A stretch of 64,000 nt of DNA from a virus, in the IMG/VR virus record IMGVR_UViG_3300048918_000089, positions 18,457 to 82,456 of that record; one strand, written 5' to 3'. The position numbers were made by a program, and so were the translations under genes. A model generated the notes under the pieces. The model did not search any database and had not been told where the DNA came from. It saw only the letters and a list, made by a program, of their open reading frames with translations. Below, piece by piece: positions 2,748 to 48,672 of this stretch (within the stretch, counting starts at the first letter, position 1; each line of letters opens with the position of its first letter).

Positions 2748-3263
2748 CTACTGCGGCTTCGCTTCGAACCACTGGTACTGTAGCGTCACCTGGAACTCAG
2801 AAATTACGTCATTCTGGGCATACGCCAACGCGATTTCAGACACGTTCACTGGGAACGCATCCTTGATCTGATAGGACCGAATGACTGCATCGTTGCGGTC
2901 AAGCTGGTCAACCTGAAGATCAGCCATGTACAGCGCAGGCGTAATCTCGCCGCCGTTGTTCAGACGGTTGTTCATGAGGTCAGACCAACGCTCAAAGAGC
3001 GTGCGGAGACGCATCGACGTATCGTTGGCAATCGTAATCACCCACGGATCGAATGTGCGCTCACCCGCAAACTTCACCTCACGACCGCGGTACTGAATGA
3101 TCGTGGCGTTGACGTTCGATGCAGGAATCGACGCCGCTGTGACCAGGAGTGAATCCTGGCCAGCGGACGCGCCGACTGCTGTAGGGAACGTGAGTGTGAC
3201 GAGGAACTGGTTCGGACGAGCACCACCAGCACCCAAGCGAGACTTAAATTCGTTGATATCCAC
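2748..3263 (-). CDS. gp19: tail tube protein
   Basis: GGARPNQFLV, YRGREVKFAGERTFDPWVITIAND, LDRND...FPVNVSEIAL...FQVTLQYQWF. Confidence 0.95.
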   Translation of the reverse strand: MDINEFKSRLGAGGARPNQFLVTLTFPTAVGASAGQDSLLVTAASIPASNVNATIIQYRGREVKFAGERTFDPWVITIANDTSMRLRTLFERWSDLMNNRLNNGGEITPALYMADLQVDQLDRNDAVIRSYQIKDAFPVNVSEIALAYAQNDVISEFQVTLQYQWFEAKPQ

Positions 3264-3283
3264 TATGTTCTCCTAGGGTTTGA

Positions 3284-5167
3284 TTAGCCGCCGATGATTT
3301 CTTCAAAGCTGACCGACGAGCGGACTGCGATGAAGTTGAGCGTAATGCCGTTGATCGAACGGTTCGGCTTCACGTAAATGTCCGCCACAAACTCAGCGCG
3401 GTCAACCACGCTTCCCGTGTTGTTCGTGCTATCGCACACAACCTCGAAATCAGTGACACCACGACGCCCCTTGATATCCCGAAGGAAAGGTTCGACCATG
3501 TTGCGGAACTGCGCGCGAGTGAAGGTGTCGTTGAACTCAAACAACTGATACTTAGCTGCGACAGCAATCGCCTTCTCAAGGACGATGAACAGACGACGCA
3601 CGTTGATGAAGCCAAACGCCGACGGCTTCGTGAGCATCGTCTTGTCGCCGTAGAGGACAGTGCCTTCACCCGGGAATGAAGCAACCGGATTGACGCCCGC
3701 CTTGTACAGTTCGTCGCGATAGGCCTTCTTCGGGTTCCATGCGAGCTTCACCACGTTCTTGACGACGCCGCGGTTAAAGCCTGCTGGTGACCACCACGCA
3801 TCGTTGGTCAGTTCAGTACGAGCAGTCAGACCCGCCATGTCCGCGTTCAGCGGAACCCAGCGAAGTGTGTCGTTGTACTTGTCGTACTGCTGCTTCCAAC
3901 CTGAGTCCATGAAGCCGTACGATGAATTGACCGAGAAAGCATCGAGGTCGGCGAGAACCGATTCCGACTCGTTGCCGATGTTGTTCAGCACAGACGACAG
4001 CAACGGTGAAACGAAACCGATGCAATCCTTGCGTGCTTCTGCAATCTGGATGATGTACTGACCGACCGTCGCCGAAGCGGGACCCTGGAAGAGCAACGAA
4101 ACGTCAATCGTCTCTGGGTCGCTGAGGAGGTCGAGGCCAAGCATGATTGACGCATCCGAAGGAGCCAGATCATCAACACCGCCCGAGAGCGTGGTGACGA
4201 GTGGAGACGGTAGCGAATCATATGCGGCACCCGATGCGGACGCGAGTGTACCCCAGTCCGTACCTACTGACGGATGACCCATCCACCAGATGTAGCGCGA
4301 GCCACGAAGCACATTCTTGTAGTAGTTGGTCGAGCCCTGCTCGGTCTTGGCATCAGATGCCTTCGACACGAATGCAAACTTCTCAAGGATCGTACCAGCA
4401 GTACCCGTCCATGCACCCGTCTTGTCAAGGACAATGATGTGCATTTCATCAAGCGAGCCACCCGCGCGCGCAACGGATGCGGACGTAGTTGGCTGTGAAT
4501 CGAACTGTGCGGCGTACGCCCACTTCGACTTGATCGTAGAACCGACAAGCGTGATCCGTGCGTTTGCAGCAAGCGTGAGCAAGTTGTCCGATGCAATGGA
4601 CGCAACGACACCGACCACAGCGTTCGCTGAGTTCAGGATGACTGCACCGACGTGCGTCTCAGTCAAGAATGCTGTGCCTGTACCCGAGACAGTCTTGGAA
4701 GACGTGTTTGCTGCTACGGTACCCGTCAAGGTAATGAGCCACGACACGCCGTCAGCGACCGACACCTGTAGCGAGTTGCCTAGGGTACCGGCCCACTTCG
4801 CAGCGACGTGTCCGACTGATGCTGCACCGGTCGAGAAGTTGTTGTCCCAGTCATCAAGGTTCTTGATGAGGATTGCAGTACCTGATGCAACTGCGTTCTT
4901 CGCAGCCGCGCCGACGACGCGCACCAGCTTGAGCTGATTCGCATATGACAGATAGTTGGCAGCCGACAACCATGACGCGGCAATAGCCGTCACAGGACGT
5001 CCAAACTCGCTAACTAGCTGAGCCTCGTCAGTAACGGTCTGCACATCCATGACGGGACCCCAGACGAACGGTCCGACGTAGCCACCCGTTGTTGCGGCGA
5101 CTGCGGGAACGATGTTGGTTAGGTCCTGTTCATTGATCTGCACACCTGGGGATACTTGGAAAGCCAT
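3284..5167 (-). CDS. gp18: contractile tail sheath protein
   Basis: MAFQVSPGVQINEQDLT; WWSPAGFNRG; RDELYKAGVNPV; INVRRLFIVLEKAI; FEFNDTFTR. Confidence 0.97.
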   Translation of the reverse strand: MAFQVSPGVQINEQDLTNIVPAVAATTGGYVGPFVWGPVMDVQTVTDEAQLVSEFGRPVTAIAASWLSAANYLSYANQLKLVRVVGAAAKNAVASGTAILIKNLDDWDNNFSTGAASVGHVAAKWAGTLGNSLQVSVADGVSWLITLTGTVAANTSSKTVSGTGTAFLTETHVGAVILNSANAVVGVVASIASDNLLTLAANARITLVGSTIKSKWAYAAQFDSQPTTSASVARAGGSLDEMHIIVLDKTGAWTGTAGTILEKFAFVSKASDAKTEQGSTNYYKNVLRGSRYIWWMGHPSVGTDWGTLASASGAAYDSLPSPLVTTLSGGVDDLAPSDASIMLGLDLLSDPETIDVSLLFQGPASATVGQYIIQIAEARKDCIGFVSPLLSSVLNNIGNESESVLADLDAFSVNSSYGFMDSGWKQQYDKYNDTLRWVPLNADMAGLTARTELTNDAWWSPAGFNRGVVKNVVKLAWNPKKAYRDELYKAGVNPVASFPGEGTVLYGDKTMLTKPSAFGFINVRRLFIVLEKAIAVAAKYQLFEFNDTFTRAQFRNMVEPFLRDIKGRRGVTDFEVVCDSTNNTGSVVDRAEFVADIYVKPNRSINGITLNFIAVRSSVSFEEIIGG

Positions 5168-16863: not shown

Positions 16864-18900
16864 ATGGCTATGAGAATCGCTATCGTTGATGTGCTGGGTC
16901 TGGCATATGATGGATATACCGTCGAGACTTTCGGACTAGGTGGGTCTGAGTCAGCGGTGACGTACATGGCAAAGGAGCTTGCTGCGTTGGGCCTTGATGT
17001 AACCGTATTCAATTCGTGCATCGACTCGCGGGCAAAGCCTGGGATCTACGACGGTGTTCAGTATCGTGACCTGACTGTTTTGGACAAAGCGGGAGATCAC
17101 CACTTTGACGTGATGATCGGCTCGCGTTCAGTGCAGCCGTTTCTGCCCAATCACCCGCGCTACTCCAAGATCAAGGCGAAGCACAAGATCCTCTGGCTCC
17201 ATGACACCTTCTGTGACGGCGACCAAATGGTCGAGGACTTGGTCCTACAGGGACACATCACCGAACTGTTCACCCTCTCTGATTGGCACACGTCATACAT
17301 CCTGAATTGTGACCACGGGAAGCGACGGAACTTCGAGGTGCTCAAGCGGAAGACGTTCCTGACGCGCAACGGAATACAGCGCCGCATTGAGGAAGTGGAC
17401 GTATCGGCCAAGGACCGCTATCGGTTCATCTACAATGCCTCAGCGACGAAGGGCATGGTTCCGTTGTTGGAGCAGATTTGGCCGCAGATCAAGACGCGCA
17501 TCCCTGCTGCGAAGCTCACTGTCATCGGAGGCTACTACCGATTCCGTGATGGGGCTGAGCCCGATGCGCAAGAAAATGTCGTAGCGAAATACGCCGCCGA
17601 TGAACGCCTGAAGGCACTTGACGTTGAGTTCACGGGCGTCATCCCACAGGGCGAGATTGCACGGCGCCTCGCAGGGGCATGGGCCACGATCTATCCCGCA
17701 GCATTCCCCGAGACGTTCGGCATCTCAACTCTGGAGTCGCTCGCGTACAACACCCCCGTCATTACGTCTCGCTTCGGCGCGCTTGAGGAGACGGCGATTG
17801 AGGAGGCATCGTACCTCATGGACTACGCAATCACACCCAACGTCCTCTTTCAGACGATCAATGAGGGCACGCAGGTTGCGCAGTTCGTGGACATGTTTGT
17901 CTCCGTCGTGATGAATCCCTATCTGCACCAGCAGAAGATTCAGGCATGCAATGCCGTGCGCCCCGTCGAAGGATGGGATACGGTCGCCCTGCAGTGGAAG
18001 CAACATCTGTTCAAGGTGTTCGGTGAGTTCCTTCCGGTAGACGAGTTCCGCCGTGTGCGCAAGATCAACAACGAAGTCCATCGGATCTTCAAGCGACGTT
18101 TCTCAAATCCCGAGGAGTGGACCCCGACGCCGCGTGCAAATGAGCAGGCGATTCACGTCGTCGTGCCATTCTACAATTCGCAGGAGTACATCGCGAAGTG
18201 CATTGAGTCCATCGCAACACAAGATTACCACAATTATAAGGTCACGCTGATTGATGATGCCTCAACCGATAATGGCTATTTGGTTGCACAGGCTGCGCTG
18301 AATCAGGTGCCCGAGAAGATTCGCAGGCGGTTTGGGCTCATTCGCAATCCTGTGAATGTGGGTGCGGTGAAGAACACCTTTGACATACTCAAGCGCATCC
18401 ATCTGAATGAACCAGGATCAACCATCGTCATGCTTCTCGACGGCGACGACTCGTTGGTTGCAGAGAACACAATCTTCCAATTCTACAATGACCTCTATCA
18501 GGGTCATGTTGATTTTGCATACGGATCCTGCTGGTCGATGGCAGACAACATCCCACTGATTGCACAGCCATATCCACAGCGGGTGCGTCTGGAGGGGACG
18601 TATCGACAGCACCTATTCGCGTGGAACATGCCGTACACTCATCTGCGCACATTCAGGTCGTATCTGATAAATCAGGTTTCAGAATCGCAGTGCAAGGATG
18701 AAGAGGGTAACTGGTATCGTGCAGGTGGTGATACCTCGATCTTCTATGCACTCATTGAAGGGGCAGACCCTAGAGGAGTCGTCGCAGTGTCCAAGATCGT
18801 CGTGAACTACAATGACCTCAACCCCCTGAATGACTACAAAGTCAACGGAGCAGAACAGACGCGCACAGCGCGGAAAGTTCTGGGACTAGATAAAGCATGA
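16864..18900 (+). CDS. bifunctional glycosyltransferase, GT-B (GT4-like) fused to GT-A (GT2-like)
   Basis: GLGGSESAV; EX7E motif FPETFGISTLESLAYNTPVI; VVVPFYNSQEYIAKCIESI...IDDASTD...LLDGDD. Confidence 0.88.
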   Translation: MAMRIAIVDVLGLAYDGYTVETFGLGGSESAVTYMAKELAALGLDVTVFNSCIDSRAKPGIYDGVQYRDLTVLDKAGDHHFDVMIGSRSVQPFLPNHPRYSKIKAKHKILWLHDTFCDGDQMVEDLVLQGHITELFTLSDWHTSYILNCDHGKRRNFEVLKRKTFLTRNGIQRRIEEVDVSAKDRYRFIYNASATKGMVPLLEQIWPQIKTRIPAAKLTVIGGYYRFRDGAEPDAQENVVAKYAADERLKALDVEFTGVIPQGEIARRLAGAWATIYPAAFPETFGISTLESLAYNTPVITSRFGALEETAIEEASYLMDYAITPNVLFQTINEGTQVAQFVDMFVSVVMNPYLHQQKIQACNAVRPVEGWDTVALQWKQHLFKVFGEFLPVDEFRRVRKINNEVHRIFKRRFSNPEEWTPTPRANEQAIHVVVPFYNSQEYIAKCIESIATQDYHNYKVTLIDDASTDNGYLVAQAALNQVPEKIRRRFGLIRNPVNVGAVKNTFDILKRIHLNEPGSTIVMLLDGDDSLVAENTIFQFYNDLYQGHVDFAYGSCWSMADNIPLIAQPYPQRVRLEGTYRQHLFAWNMPYTHLRTFRSYLINQVSESQCKDEEGNWYRAGGDTSIFYALIEGADPRGVVAVSKIVVNYNDLNPLNDYKVNGAEQTRTARKVLGLDKA

Positions 18901-43616: not shown

Positions 43617-44192
43617 ATGCCGAAGAATCCCCTAGAGTCCATTCGTGAAGTCGCTGGTACCAGACAGCGGTCCTTGCAATGGTATCAAGGGCAGATCAAG
43701 CAACTCGGCCTCTCGCACATTTCGGCTGCAGGTGCTATGTCGGCTGGGATCGGCAAGTTCGTCCCACGCCCCGAAATGGGGAAGATGTATCTGTACGCCT
43801 ACGATCCCAAGACGAAGGAGACGCTGCCGTTCTATGACACGTTCCCGTTGGTCTTCCCGTTCGCCCCTGCGCGCGGCGGTTTCCGTGGGATCAACCTGCA
43901 CTACATCCCACCGATGCTGCGGAATCAGTTCATCCAAGAACTGATGGGTTACGCTGGGTCAAAGACCCTCTCGGAGACGAGTCGGCTCCGCTTGACGTGG
44001 GGTGTCTTGTCGCAGTATGCCGAATCGTTCGCTTGCGTGAAGCATTATCTCACTGGTCACATTCGGTCACGGTTCCTGCAGATTCATCCTGCAGATTGGA
44101 ACACGGCGACGTTGCTACCAATTGAAGGATTCGTGGGAGCCTCGAAGGATGTAGTCTACAAGGACAGCCTAGGAGTCATCGGTGCCGAATAG
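43617..44192 (+). CDS. gp2: DNA end protector protein
   Basis: GKMYLYAYDPKTKETLPFYDTFPLVF...GINLHYIPP...CVKHYL.GH.RS. Confidence 0.93.
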   Translation: MPKNPLESIREVAGTRQRSLQWYQGQIKQLGLSHISAAGAMSAGIGKFVPRPEMGKMYLYAYDPKTKETLPFYDTFPLVFPFAPARGGFRGINLHYIPPMLRNQFIQELMGYAGSKTLSETSRLRLTWGVLSQYAESFACVKHYLTGHIRSRFLQIHPADWNTATLLPIEGFVGASKDVVYKDSLGVIGAE

Positions 44193-45087
44193 TCTGAAGG
44201 AGCTAGCAAACCAGCTACTCAACAACACGCGGAACAGAGTACAGGATACGGTCGCGGGTAAGATCAAGGGTCTTGCTGACGATGTGATTAGTAAGGTCCC
44301 GTACGGTGACCAACTCTCGCAGTGGGCGGGGATCGACCGTGTCGCCAAATTGGTTCGCGACAATGACGCCGATCCCGCAAGCCTCCAGCGATTCATCTCC
44401 CTCCTGAAGGCTGAGGGGATCCAGACGACGGATCGGTTCATGGTGCAGTTCTCAAAGCCGCAGATTGACCTACCTGCTGACACGAATGCGATGGTGGCGC
44501 TGTCCCTCCTCTGTGAGGAAGCGTCACTCCCACAGCACTCGCTTCGGACTCGGACGGTGAAGATTAACGGGCTTGAGTCGCATCGTGCATCGGGCATTGA
44601 CTATCACTCAGACACGATCACCTTCGGGTTCTATCTACAGCGGACCCTGCGCGCCAAGCGATTCTTTGAGAATTGGATGGACGGTATCGTGTCACCGGTG
44701 ACGCGCGAGATTGCATTCTACAACGACTACACGGCGGACGTTGAGATGACGATCCTTGATAAGTCGAACTCACCTGTGTTTAAGATCAAGTTGATGGAAT
44801 GCTTCCCGAGAAGTGTGGAAGCGATTCCGTTGTCGTTCGGATCCCATCAGGCTATGAAGCTCCAAGTCAAGATGGCATTCAACAAGTGGGTCGCGGTGAA
44901 GCACACTGAAGATTCAATCATGCAGGCGGGTGACTCGTTGGTCGATCAGGCTGACAATTCGTTCCTCGGCAATCTGGAACGTCAGGCCATTAACGGTATG
45001 CGTGATATCGGTATCCGGACAGCGACACAAAAGATCGGCGGACCGATCGTCGGCGCAGTGAACAAAATTCTAAGTCGTACACGATAA
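44182..45087 (+). CDS. gp54: baseplate tail tube initiator
   Basis: DRFMVQF...LCEEASLP...FFENWMDGIV...FYNDYTA...L.ECFP.SV.AI.L. Confidence 0.8.
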   Translation: MPNSLKELANQLLNNTRNRVQDTVAGKIKGLADDVISKVPYGDQLSQWAGIDRVAKLVRDNDADPASLQRFISLLKAEGIQTTDRFMVQFSKPQIDLPADTNAMVALSLLCEEASLPQHSLRTRTVKINGLESHRASGIDYHSDTITFGFYLQRTLRAKRFFENWMDGIVSPVTREIAFYNDYTADVEMTILDKSNSPVFKIKLMECFPRSVEAIPLSFGSHQAMKLQVKMAFNKWVAVKHTEDSIMQAGDSLVDQADNSFLGNLERQAINGMRDIGIRTATQKIGGPIVGAVNKILSRTR

Positions 45088-45096
45088 CAACCTGAG

Positions 45097-45801
45097 GTGA
45101 GCATGGCACTACCAACAATGATGGTTCCGAAGTACACGCTGACGCTCCCGTCCAACGGCGTGTCGATCACGTATCGTCCCTTTGTCATGCGCGAGGAAAA
45201 GATCCTGCTTATGGCGGCGGAGGGTTCTGAGAAGGATGTCGTGGATGCAGTAGAGACAGTTATCAACTCCTGCACCTACGGGGCAGTGTCCACAAAAACG
45301 AATCCTCTGTTCGATATTCAGTACGTTTTTCTTCAGATTCGTGCGAAAAGTGTCGGTGAAGTTGCAGAATTTGAACTCGTTTGTGGCAGTTGCTCCGCTC
45401 GACTACCGGCATCGCTGAACGTCGCAGAGCTTGAAGTTGAGAGAACGGAAGGACATTCGGCCGTGATTCTGCTTGAGGGAAAGACGGGTGTGAAGATGCG
45501 GTATCCGCGCCTCGAACATCTGGCACTCCTTGAAAAGGCGGATGACGTTGAAGCCATCTACGGTGTGCTGGCGGCGTGTGTCGAGTCCATTTTTACTGAG
45601 GACGATATCTTCGTCTGTGATGGCTCCAATGTCGAAGAGGTGAAGGAATTTCTCGATGGGCTCACGGCCGACCAATTCAAGAAGGTGCGTGCGTTCTTTG
45701 ATACGATGCCCAAGATGGTGCACACCATTGCGTACACCTGCGAGAAGTGCCAGCAGCCGAATGAGGTTGTCATGAAGGGGCTCGCGGGTTTTTTCGACTA
45801 G
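45097..45801 (+). CDS. gp26: baseplate hub assembly chaperone
   Basis: LP...PKYTLTLPS....YRPFVMREEKILLMA; FDIQYVFLQIRAKSVGE; CGSC; MRYP; FFDTMPK; CEKC; ends GLAGFFD. Confidence 0.92.
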   Translation: MSMALPTMMVPKYTLTLPSNGVSITYRPFVMREEKILLMAAEGSEKDVVDAVETVINSCTYGAVSTKTNPLFDIQYVFLQIRAKSVGEVAEFELVCGSCSARLPASLNVAELEVERTEGHSAVILLEGKTGVKMRYPRLEHLALLEKADDVEAIYGVLAACVESIFTEDDIFVCDGSNVEEVKEFLDGLTADQFKKVRAFFDTMPKMVHTIAYTCEKCQQPNEVVMKGLAGFFD

Positions 45802-45977
45802 CTCTCTCACATGAGACCCTTGCCAACTATTTCAAGACGGCACACATCCTGAAGAGCAAGCATCAATACTCGCTGACCGAGATTGAGAACATGCTCCCAT
45901 GGGAGAGAGACATTTACGTTGCGTTCATCATTCAGGACATTGACAAGAAACTCAAACAGAACCAGCAACCGGTATAA
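45786..45977 (+). CDS. gp51: gp51-like baseplate hub assembly ORF in the -1 frame, with no start codon of its own (probable frameshift extension of gp26)
   Basis: -1 frame reads GFFRLALSHETLANYFKTAHILKSKHQYSLTEIENMLPWERDIYVAFIIQDIDKKLKQNQQPV* (YSLTEIENM.PWER.IY is the gp51 motif). In-frame TGA at 45762-45764 and no ATG/GTG/TTG before the conserved part. Confidence 0.75.
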   Translation, partial: GFFRLALSHETLANYFKTAHILKSKHQYSLTEIENMLPWERDIYVAFIIQDIDKKLKQNQQPV

Positions 45978-45983
45978 TAGGAA

Positions 45984-47615
45984 ATGGCTAAGCCCAGATC
46001 ACACAGTCGGCAGATCGCACTAGCGGGGAAGTCGATCATGTCAGCCGGTAATTCGACGGCTGACTTTGAGCGCAACTCGGCTAACATCTCCTTCGTGCGA
46101 GGAATGGTTCAGCCGATCTCCAATGTCGCCGCATCGCTCGACTCGATGACGGAGGAGCAGGAGAAGCACTTCAACGAACTCATCGCCGTGATGAAGTCGT
46201 CGGTGCGGTCCAACGACCTCCTCGAGGAAACACAGAAGGCACTGACCGATAAGATCGCAGCCATGATCGCATCGCTTCAGCTACAGGGCGGCGGGAAGAA
46301 CAAGGATGCGATTGACAAACTCAAGGCACTGCACAAGGGTGTAGGCAAGAGTGGTGGGACAGGCTCTAACTTCATGCGGTCATTTCTAGGCGATGAGTTT
46401 GAGTCGAATCGTCAGACGGGTGCGTCGGCAGGAACATTGGTTGCATCAGGCACAACAGGACTCCTCAAGTCCATCCTCGCCGACTTCGGTGTCAATTCGG
46501 GGAAGCACAAGGAAGGCCTGAACTCGGCTGTGAATCGTCACATGGCCGCCCAGACAACACTGGGCTCAATTGGCGGGCCAACACGGCTCGGGGGTCTCGG
46601 CGGTGGCGATGATCTGGGATACGGTCCTGGACGGAAGCCGAACGGCACAGGAACTCAGTTGGGTGTTCTGAATCTCATCCGCCGCGAGATTACCCTCATT
46701 CGTATGGTTGTCGAGGGACGCATCAAGTTCAAGCCCGGGTCCAAGAAGAACGCCGAGCGCGAAGATTATCAGAAGAAGACCTCTGATGCAGCGAAGGGCC
46801 GCCCCGCAATGTTTACCAATCTCGCCAAGGGTGACTCGGCACTGATTGAAGCAGTGAAGCATGCCATTGAGAACAAGGGCGTGCCAATGCCGAATAAGGA
46901 TCCTGATACGGAGAATGATTCAAAGGCTGCGCACTCAAGCATTCTTGCAGGCACGAAGGCAACGAGTGATGCGAAGAATATGGAAGCCGATGATGACGAC
47001 AAGAAGGCGACTCCGATCAAGTCTGTCGCCCCCATCGCAGAAGGTTTCGGCGGGGCTGCGATTCTGTCGATGGCCAAGAAGTTCTTCTCGCGCGGTAAGG
47101 TTCCGTCCGAAGTTGTAAAGGCGACTGCCAAGGTTGGCTCGACGGCAGCGGGCGGTGCAGGGGCAGCTGCCGCAGGGGGCGCTGAAGCGGCGGGGGTCGC
47201 AGGCGGTGGAAGTAGCGCAATCGCCACGCTCGGCCCAATTGCGCTACTTGTTGCGGCAGGTGCTCTTGCCAAGTATGACATTGACAAGACATTTGAGGAG
47301 CACGACGACGCCATCGAAGAGGATTCGAAACTCGGTAAGGCACATCTCGCGTATCTCAAGGCGCGGGGTGTCGCCCATGCTCACGCAGGGAAGTTCTCGG
47401 GGACGCCAAATAACTCGGGCATTGCGATGGATACCATGGGTGATATGCTTGAGACGCTGAAGGGACATGGTGAACACCCGCAGGCGCCGCAGATCATTCC
47501 AATCCCGACGCCTATTACGCAGCGGGTTGTTGAAACACAGACGATGCTCCCAACGCGTCCGACGGACAATTCGTTCCTGCGGTATCTCGACAAGCGAGCA
47601 GTCAGAAGCCTATAG
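45984..47615 (+). CDS. probable tape measure / baseplate hub protein (gp29-like)
   Basis: 543-aa helical, Ala/Gly-rich protein following gp26/gp51; the call rests on position and composition only. Confidence 0.55.
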   Translation: MAKPRSHSRQIALAGKSIMSAGNSTADFERNSANISFVRGMVQPISNVAASLDSMTEEQEKHFNELIAVMKSSVRSNDLLEETQKALTDKIAAMIASLQLQGGGKNKDAIDKLKALHKGVGKSGGTGSNFMRSFLGDEFESNRQTGASAGTLVASGTTGLLKSILADFGVNSGKHKEGLNSAVNRHMAAQTTLGSIGGPTRLGGLGGGDDLGYGPGRKPNGTGTQLGVLNLIRREITLIRMVVEGRIKFKPGSKKNAEREDYQKKTSDAAKGRPAMFTNLAKGDSALIEAVKHAIENKGVPMPNKDPDTENDSKAAHSSILAGTKATSDAKNMEADDDDKKATPIKSVAPIAEGFGGAAILSMAKKFFSRGKVPSEVVKATAKVGSTAAGGAGAAAAGGAEAAGVAGGGSSAIATLGPIALLVAAGALAKYDIDKTFEEHDDAIEEDSKLGKAHLAYLKARGVAHAHAGKFSGTPNNSGIAMDTMGDMLETLKGHGEHPQAPQIIPIPTPITQRVVETQTMLPTRPTDNSFLRYLDKRAVRSL

Positions 47616-47766: not shown

Positions 47767-48672
47767 TTAGTCGTTCGCGAGACCTGCGAAGTACGAAATG
47801 TCGTCTGCCTGCTCATCAGCACCCGATGACTTGGGCATTGAAGGAGCCGCAGTGCGACCTACTGATGGCGCTGGGGCAACTGCATCGTCAGCAATCTTCG
47901 CCGCCGCTTCAGCCGTCCGTGCACCTGCCGGTCCCTTGAGGACGAAGTCAAGCCGCTTCTTCAGATCCTCGTAGCTCTTGAAGTTCGACGGGGCCAAGAA
48001 CTCCTGGAGCGAATGTTCCTGCTTCCAGATTGCTTCGATAGCCTCATCCGTCTTGGCGATCGGGGTCGAGTTGTCAAACTTCGACTTGTCGTAGTTCCGA
48101 TAGCCTTCAACCTGCTGAATCAGGAGCTTGAAGTTCGCGCCCGTGTCGAAGTCGAACGGGTTGATCGGATCCTCACCCTCAAACTGAGGCTGCATGAGAT
48201 CCTTGATCTTGTCGAAAATCTTCTTGCCGAACTTGTACAAGAACACCTTCCCCTCGTTCGCAGGAACTGCGGGATCCTTGATAACGAGAATGTTGGCGAT
48301 GTACGTGAGCCGACGCTTCTGCTTGCGTGCGATATCCTTGTTGGATTCGATGCCAGAGTTCCAGAGTTCGGAATTGAGTTCCGAAACGGGGTCAGTCTGG
48401 CCTAGCGTCGTGAGAGAGTTTTCGATATACCACTTGCCAGTCGGGCCCTGGAAGCCGTGATTCCACGTGCGAACCCACGGAACATCTTCGCCTTGAACTG
48501 GGGGGAGAAAGCGGATGATCGCGGAACCGTTCTGCGCCTTGTCAACAGTCGGTGTCCAGAAACGATTGTCATCCTTGCGGTCGCCGCCAGTTGTCAGCTT
48601 TTCAACTTCCTTCATCAGGTTGTCGAAGTTGCCGCGGGCGGAACGCATTTCTGCGAGGGAACTGTAAGCCAT
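47767..48672 (-). CDS. gp32: single-stranded DNA-binding protein
   Basis: DNRFWTPTVDKAQNGSAIIRFLP, HGFQGPTGKWYIENSLTTLG..DPVSE, YKFGKKIFDKI, GANFKL, FKSYEDLKKRL; acidic C-terminus. Confidence 0.96.
   Translation of the reverse strand: MAYSSLAEMRSARGNFDNLMKEVEKLTTGGDRKDDNRFWTPTVDKAQNGSAIIRFLPPVQGEDVPWVRTWNHGFQGPTGKWYIENSLTTLGQTDPVSELNSELWNSGIESNKDIARKQKRRLTYIANILVIKDPAVPANEGKVFLYKFGKKIFDKIKDLMQPQFEGEDPINPFDFDTGANFKLLIQQVEGYRNYDKSKFDNSTPIAKTDEAIEAIWKQEHSLQEFLAPSNFKSYEDLKKRLDFVLKGPAGARTAEAAAKIADDAVAPAPSVGRTAAPSMPKSSGADEQADDISYFAGLAND

Follow-up and report, generated by a model that had tools for sequence, protein, structure and literature searches.

A conserved -1 frameshift of tail assembly chaperone genes, as in the G/GT pair of phage lambda, was reportedly described by Levin, Hendrix and Casjens in 1993 and by Xu, Hendrix and Duda in 2004. 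For the T4-like phages the tail assembly chaperones (TAC) are gp26 and gp51 according to Vladimirov, Gautam and Davidson (Virology 2022;566:9-15, pmid 34826709), as quoted in two later papers (PMC10885494 and PMC12846349). Where the PRFect paper (PMC10885494) cites this work, it states that some T4-like phages have a short TAC gene and a longer fused gene and use no frameshift, and the paper on phage Adele (PMC12846349), citing the same source, speaks of poly-T -1 slippery signals in T4-like TAC-N genes. As far as these citing passages go, the gp26/gp51 frameshift arrangement is already published for T4-like phages since 2022, and the locus described here is one more, divergent example of it. 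Leiman et al. 2010 (PMC3004832) list gp26 and gp51 as hub assembly chaperones, where gp51 is said to be required without being present in the particle, and GenBank record MN709128 calls both of them "tape measure protein assembly chaperone". A literature search linking the hub-assembly names of gp26 and gp51 with frameshifting returned nothing relevant.

The window, i.e. the whole stretch of 64,000 nucleotides analyzed here (IMG/VR record IMGVR_UViG_3300048918_000089, positions 18,457 to 82,456), comes from an uncultured and divergent T4-like phage of a root metagenome with a GC content of 54%; the nearest gp26 that we found is at most 44% identical to that of the window. The features of the locus are as follows.

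44182 to 45087, plus strand: tail-tube-family gene (gp54-like) directly upstream of gp26 (PF23849 Phage_TTP_2, E 2.4e-9; phrog_45 tail tube, E 2e-34)
45103 to 45801, plus strand: gp26, short tail assembly chaperone (TAC-N) of 232 amino acids, read in the 0 frame and closed by the TAG at 45799-45801
45762 to 45764, plus strand: TGA that ends the -1 frame ahead of the slip site
45775 to 45780, plus strand: AAGGGG, Shine-Dalgarno (SD)-like stretch of purines with its end 9 nt ahead of the conserved heptamer, a candidate stimulator of frameshifting from the upstream side
45786 to 45792, plus strand: G_GGT_TTT, second in-phase slippery heptamer, overlapping the next one (GGT precedes the T run in only 2 of 86 loci)
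45789 to 45795, plus strand: T_TTT_TTC, slippery heptamer, in phase and conserved, at which the -1 shift is proposed to occur (T_TTT_TTY in 86 of 86 loci)
45795 to 45977, plus strand: -1 extension ("gp51", TAC-C), 60 codons and a TAA (phrog_634; phrog_150 positions 226-280; T4 gp51 residues 200-247)
45803 to 45843, plus strand: weak predicted local RNA structure 3' of the heptamer (window fold -9.4 kcal/mol, z -2.1)
45984 to 47615, plus strand: Gly/Ala-rich ORF of 543 amino acids, probable tape measure protein (gp29 equivalent) by position, size and a low-confidence model (Atlas pLDDT 0.42)

We consider it likely that the gp26-gp51 long form is produced by programmed -1 ribosomal frameshifting, an interpretation supported by the conserved signal, by the coding capacity of the -1 frame ahead of its first possible start, by homology to T4 gp51, by synteny with a tail-tube-like and a probable tape measure gene and by the fold of the N-domain. 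Gene 26 would be translated mostly into the short chaperone of 232 amino acids, while a minority of ribosomes would slip one base back on T_TTT_TTC, where they decode two Phe codons, and read a further 60 codons in the -1 frame to give a long form of 291 amino acids, whose extension is what annotators call gp51. The proper annotation of the gene would be join(45103..45795,45795..45977). The first-pass annotation had put the two products at about 234 and about 295 amino acids; these figures have to be replaced, since the likely start is ATG 45103, which is preceded by GAGG and gives an N-terminus like the MALP of the homologs, with GTG 45097 as the alternative start.

The 3' end of the short ORF reads ATG AAG GGG CTC GCG GGT TTT TTC GAC TAG and does contain the two overlapping in-phase heptamers reported from the first reading of the sequence. 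Slippage on either of them, G_GGT_TTT or T_TTT_TTC, would give the identical 291-amino acid product with the identical junction peptide, GLAGFF followed by RLALSHE. The -1 frame is closed by the upstream TGA, open from 45765 to 45974 and terminated by TAA at 45975-45977, and it encodes a peptide containing GCHEGARGFFRLALSHETLANYF and YSLTEIENMLPWERDIY. Trypsin would be expected to release the diagnostic peptides GLAGFFR and LALSHETLANYFK from the long form, and GLAGFFD as the C-terminus of the short form. TTTTTTY occurs only once on both strands of the 64-kb window, against 9 +/- 3.8 copies expected from shuffled sequences, and this sole copy is the frameshift site, which suggests that T6 runs elsewhere in this phage of 54% GC are under negative selection. 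As judged by its uniqueness in the window and its conservation in the relatives, the putative slip site is not a chance occurrence.

Aligning the gp26/gp51 junctions of related T4-like phages had been proposed as a check in the first-pass annotation, and the outcome is in favor of recoding. A tblastn search with the 70-amino acid -1 peptide gave matches in 554 phage records, mostly from cyanophages and otherwise from phages of Vibrio, Rhizobium, Sinorhizobium, Pelagibacter, Methylophilales, Pseudomonas and Stenotrophomonas, and the matches often extend upstream into the annotated 3' end of gp26. A set of 86 junctions (80 IMG/VR contigs, five GenBank phages and the window) was compared, comprising 82 distinct junction contexts with a median nucleotide identity of 47% over the upstream 300 nt. 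An in-phase T_TTT_TTY is present in all 86, the last base being C in 62 and T in 24, and gp51 lies in the -1 frame in every case with an extension of 57 to 70 codons. The T run is T6 at 62 loci, T7 at six, T8 at 17 and T9 at one. The second heptamer fared differently from the first: its GGT before the T run recurs at two of the 86 loci only, and G_GGT_TTT was therefore rejected as a conserved slip site.

The codon in front of the heptamer is always NNT (AGT 30, GAT 19, TCT 17, AAT 15, GCT 2, GGT 2, CAT 1), so that the encoded residue may be Ser, Asp, Asn, Ala, Gly or His while the third position is invariably T. Elsewhere in gp26 a third-position T is found in 31-77% of the codons for these amino acids, and the chance of finding T at all the preceding wobble positions is about 1e-18 if the loci are independent. 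The 0-frame stop follows zero to one codons past the heptamer at 83 of the 86 loci. Two IMG/VR loci have a 0 frame that runs for 8 codons past the heptamer, instead of 0-2, with both the heptamer and the -1 extension intact, and a closely following stop thus appears to be usual, not obligatory. At 18 loci the junction reads NNT GAT TTT TTT TAA, where a TGA shuts the -1 frame just before the heptamer and the 0 frame is shut just after it; at these loci the frame change is therefore possible only within the seven nucleotides of the heptamer.

The same alignment bears on the trivial explanation that an assembly or sequencing indel in the homopolymer has split what is truly a single gp26-gp51 ORF with a T7 run. 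One extra T would indeed fuse the two frames, and homopolymers are error-prone; against this, the identical interruption is seen in 86 of 86 independent genomes and metagenomes, and for the probable source run a Logan contig assembled independently (a contig, not raw reads, and probably from the same sample) is identical to the window. The indel check raised at first reading thus came out in favor of a genuine interruption, and an artifact is so improbable that it can be set aside.

As the first reading had it, the -1 frame carries a stop at 45762-45764 and no start codon before the conserved region: the earliest ATG, GTG or TTG in the -1 frame is the ATG at 45891, at codon 34 past the T run, and the ORF from there has only 28 amino acids and misses most of the conserved gp51 motif. 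The ORF listing contains no ORF of 30 or more amino acids in the -1 frame of the gp51 region. The -1 peptide matches phrog_634 "baseplate hub assembly catalyst" with an E-value of 5.7e-22, and it matches positions 226-280 of phrog_150, continuing directly where gp26 ends. Among the relatives the -1 protein is conserved from the slip onward and ahead of any start, following the pattern FFR[I/L]xLxH..L...HKYSL.E.E...PWER..Y with H8 and L11 conserved to at least 90%, while the first ATG, GTG or TTG in the -1 frame varies from codon 3 to codon 34.

An independent small gp51 protein of about 28 to 60 amino acids, which is how most GenBank records annotate gp51, could begin at its own start codon or at a non-canonical one, or ribosomes could re-initiate once past the stop of gp26. 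Such a protein would agree with the ATG, GTG or TTG that many relatives have 3-10 codons from the slip, and with the GenBank records of S-CAM9, phiM7, Vibrio D482 and DLP_6, in which gp51 is annotated from an arbitrary start as a stand-alone CDS of 53-57 amino acids. The records of S-WAM2, ACG-2014d and Sf-CH1b, however, leave the region unannotated, and the position of the start is not conserved even though the residues upstream of the starts are. Moreover, no start precedes codon 34 in the window, gp51 stands in the -1 frame throughout, and the homologous segment in T4 is the C-terminus of a gp26-like protein. Taken together these observations make separate initiation of gp51 very unlikely. 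None of nine GenBank records inspected had a joined (ribosomal slippage) CDS for gp51. Across GenBank, hundreds of entries still show gp51 as a small gene of its own or leave it without annotation.

In T4 itself the same two protein forms are found in a different genetic arrangement. T4 gp51 (249 amino acids) spans positions 13-280 of phrog_150 in a single ORF, and T4 gp26 (208 amino acids) spans positions 14-235; the two T4 proteins are weakly similar to each other by BLASTP. Residues 200-247 of T4 gp51 align to the -1 peptide of the window, beginning at the Phe of the slip site. T4 gp51 therefore consists of a gp26-like domain and an extension in one ORF, and is the in-frame equivalent of the gp26-gp51 fusion. 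As in the window, T4 gp26 aligns to the short form and T4 gp51 combines a gp26-like domain with the same C-terminal extension, but in T4 they are two separate, divergently transcribed genes without a slippery run, whereas the window has one gene with a -1 extension. T4 gene 26 ends in ...GLKEFFELL with the Phe-Phe pair encoded by the non-slippery GAG TTC TTT. At the level of sequence, T4 gene 26 can serve as a natural control, in that a phage with a separate gene for the long form has retained the amino acids but not the slippery nucleotides. T4 and its close relatives would accordingly be phages in which paralogous genes 26 and 51 supply the same two forms separately.

Full-length gp51 in a single ORF was found in 1380 records of T4-like phages of enterobacteria, Acinetobacter and Aeromonas. 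The KVP40-like Vibrio phage D482 has the frameshift arrangement, reading GAT TTT TTC GTC TAA with gp51 in the -1 frame. Frameshift and two-gene arrangements may both occur among phages that are usually grouped with T4, the D482 record itself naming no family.

We now turn to the signals around the slip and to the question whether the frame is changed by the ribosome or by the RNA polymerase. Relatives of the window phage read GA(G/A)GG at positions -14 to -10 from the heptamer, and an SD-like core of the GAGG/GGAG type is located 9-10 nt upstream at 56 of the 86 loci, compared with 3.5% of the 9-nt background windows inside gp26. The Glu codon within this element is GAG in 46 of 60 cases (77%), compared with 27% at Glu codons outside the element, and likewise 27% at those among them that are followed by Gly (p 8e-16). 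The element is found in phages of cyanobacteria and of alpha- and gamma-proteobacteria. It is possible, and from codon usage we put it forward only tentatively, that GAGG at 9-10 nt upstream of U_UUU_UUY is a third element of the cassette, selected at synonymous sites and perhaps unreported so far, that would pause the ribosome in the manner of dnaX. If true, such a pausing cassette would speak for recoding during translation and not during transcription. Downstream of the site the RNA signal is modest: across the loci the 40 nt past it fold better than controls (mean z -1.3 versus -0.48, p 2e-5), and no consensus pairs of a conserved stem-loop or pseudoknot emerged when 33 junctions, each taken from the heptamer as far as +70, were analyzed with RNAalifold. 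The likely stimulators of the shift would be the SD-like purine run, the 0-frame stop one codon downstream of the heptamer and the weak RNA structure.

Some of these data have to be counted against a ribosomal slip. U_UUU_UUC is not known as one of the most efficient slippery sites in bacteria, the AAGGGG of the window is an imperfect version of the SD-like element, and the phase of the T run is in part dictated by coding, as the two Phe residues are conserved in the protein. The competing possibility is that the RNA polymerase adds one U on the run of U6-U9, in which case some of the mRNAs would encode the fusion in a single frame. This would account for a conserved element that is a homopolymer run of T6-T9, one inserted base yields exactly the needed frame, and the T at the preceding wobble position fits as well by lengthening the run. 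The lack of a conserved downstream RNA structure points the same way, and a small fraction of long form may suffice; in lambda the long form GT is needed at only a few percent. Efficient slippage of bacterial RNA polymerase is, however, usually reported for runs of about nine or more, and most loci, the window included, have only T6 (62 of 86), with T8-9 in 18. Furthermore, the SD-like element with its enrichment at synonymous sites would act on ribosomes and not on the polymerase, which favors translational over transcriptional slippage, and translational sites are typically followed as closely by a 0-frame stop as the heptamer is here. The poly-T run is also called a -1 frameshift signal in the passage of the Adele paper that cites the published T4-like system (PMC12846349). 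We therefore regard transcriptional slippage as unlikely, although clearly less so than separate initiation of gp51, and retain programmed -1 ribosomal frameshifting as the probable mechanism.

The identity of gp26 as a tail assembly chaperone is supported by family profiles and by its predicted fold. The window protein matches PF12322 T4_baseplate with an E-value of 4e-58 (197 bits against a curated cut-off of 24.5) and covers positions 5-232 of the 282 of phrog_150 "baseplate hub". An AF2 model with a pLDDT of 89.5 was compared with 48,161 PDB chains, and the best matches were the HK97 TAC 2ob9 (Z 7.5, 83/104 residues), 3fgx (Z 7.4) and YqbN 3klu (Z 6.9), which we take to be a prophage TAC of the XkdN type; the Z values are modest and the next match is at Z 4.6. 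All three top matches cover the N-domain of gp26, approximately residues 1-93 (1-89 in another delimitation). Foldseek of the gp26 model against the PDB gave nothing at E <= 0.001, and a profile search of the PDB sequences with the gp26 family alignment gave only chance-level matches.

Two Cys motifs are present in gp26, CGSC at approximately residues 96-99 and CEKC at approximately residues 217-220. Residues 86-231 of the model match small Zn-ribbon proteins (ZitP, LysW and the DnaJ Zn finger) with Z about 3, which agrees with the CxxC...CxxC pattern. T4 gp26 and gp51 also have CPxC, and S-CAM9 and S-WAM2 have NPNTG at the second site, so that the metal site seems to be optional in this chaperone family.

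The first-pass annotation placed the pair immediately before a tape-measure-like gene. The position holds, and the 543-amino acid ORF is a probable tape measure gene, as judged by its location and by one weak lead, an Atlas feature similarity of 0.89 to the cluster of PF25671 T4_Tape_measure. This ORF had no Pfam or PHROG match, and BLASTP against T4 gp29 gave nothing. The gene in the tape-measure position of S-CAM9 (locus 3126-4577) contains an endolysin-like segment at residues 239-401 (phrog_90, E 2e-12), a match that is absent in its 543-amino acid counterpart in the window. The gene order in T4 is 51-27-28-29, whereas in the window there is no homolog of gp27, gp28 or gp5 between gp51 and the tape-measure candidate. 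Directly after this candidate comes a gene for a gp32-like single-stranded DNA-binding protein (47767-48672, minus strand); as it lies on the other strand, the structural module ends at 47615.

By analogy with lambda G/GT, the N-domain common to both forms would hold the tape measure protein, i.e. the product of the 543-amino acid gene, while hub and tube are being assembled, the extension would link this tape-measure complex with proteins of the tube or the hub, and both forms would be absent from the finished virion. A complex prediction for the gp51 extension with the gp19 tube protein of the window (2751-3263, minus strand) had a score of 0.00, which is not evidence either way.

The reading of the locus as a G/GT-style frameshift, proposed from the sequence at the outset, is supported by the comparative evidence. 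The window resembles lambda G/GT in having two products with a common N-terminus, an X_XXY_YYZ heptamer near the end of the short ORF, a position downstream of a tube-family gene and, probably, upstream of the tape measure gene, and an N-domain with a TAC-like fold. It differs from lambda in that the heptamer is U_UUU_UUY and not G_GGA_AAG, in that the short form has about double the length and an extra Zn-ribbon-like C-domain, and in that lambda G has no detectable sequence similarity to the gp26 of the window. In E. coli dnaX an A_AAA_AAG heptamer is combined with a strong downstream stem-loop and an SD stimulator at a similar spacing. The window shares with dnaX the SD-like element about 10 nt upstream of a slippery heptamer, but its heptamer is U-rich and its downstream structure is weak and not conserved. 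With the T4-like system of Vladimirov et al. 2022, as far as it can be followed in the papers citing it, the locus shares the same families (PF12322, phrog_150 and phrog_634) and the same logic of a short and a long form. Recoding would explain why the T4-type phages seemed to lack the near-universal G/GT frameshift, a point that according to those papers is already in print (Vladimirov et al. 2022). Measured against that system as cited, the window adds an overlapping G_GGT_TTT heptamer and a gp26 with at most 44% identity, and there is no difference in kind.
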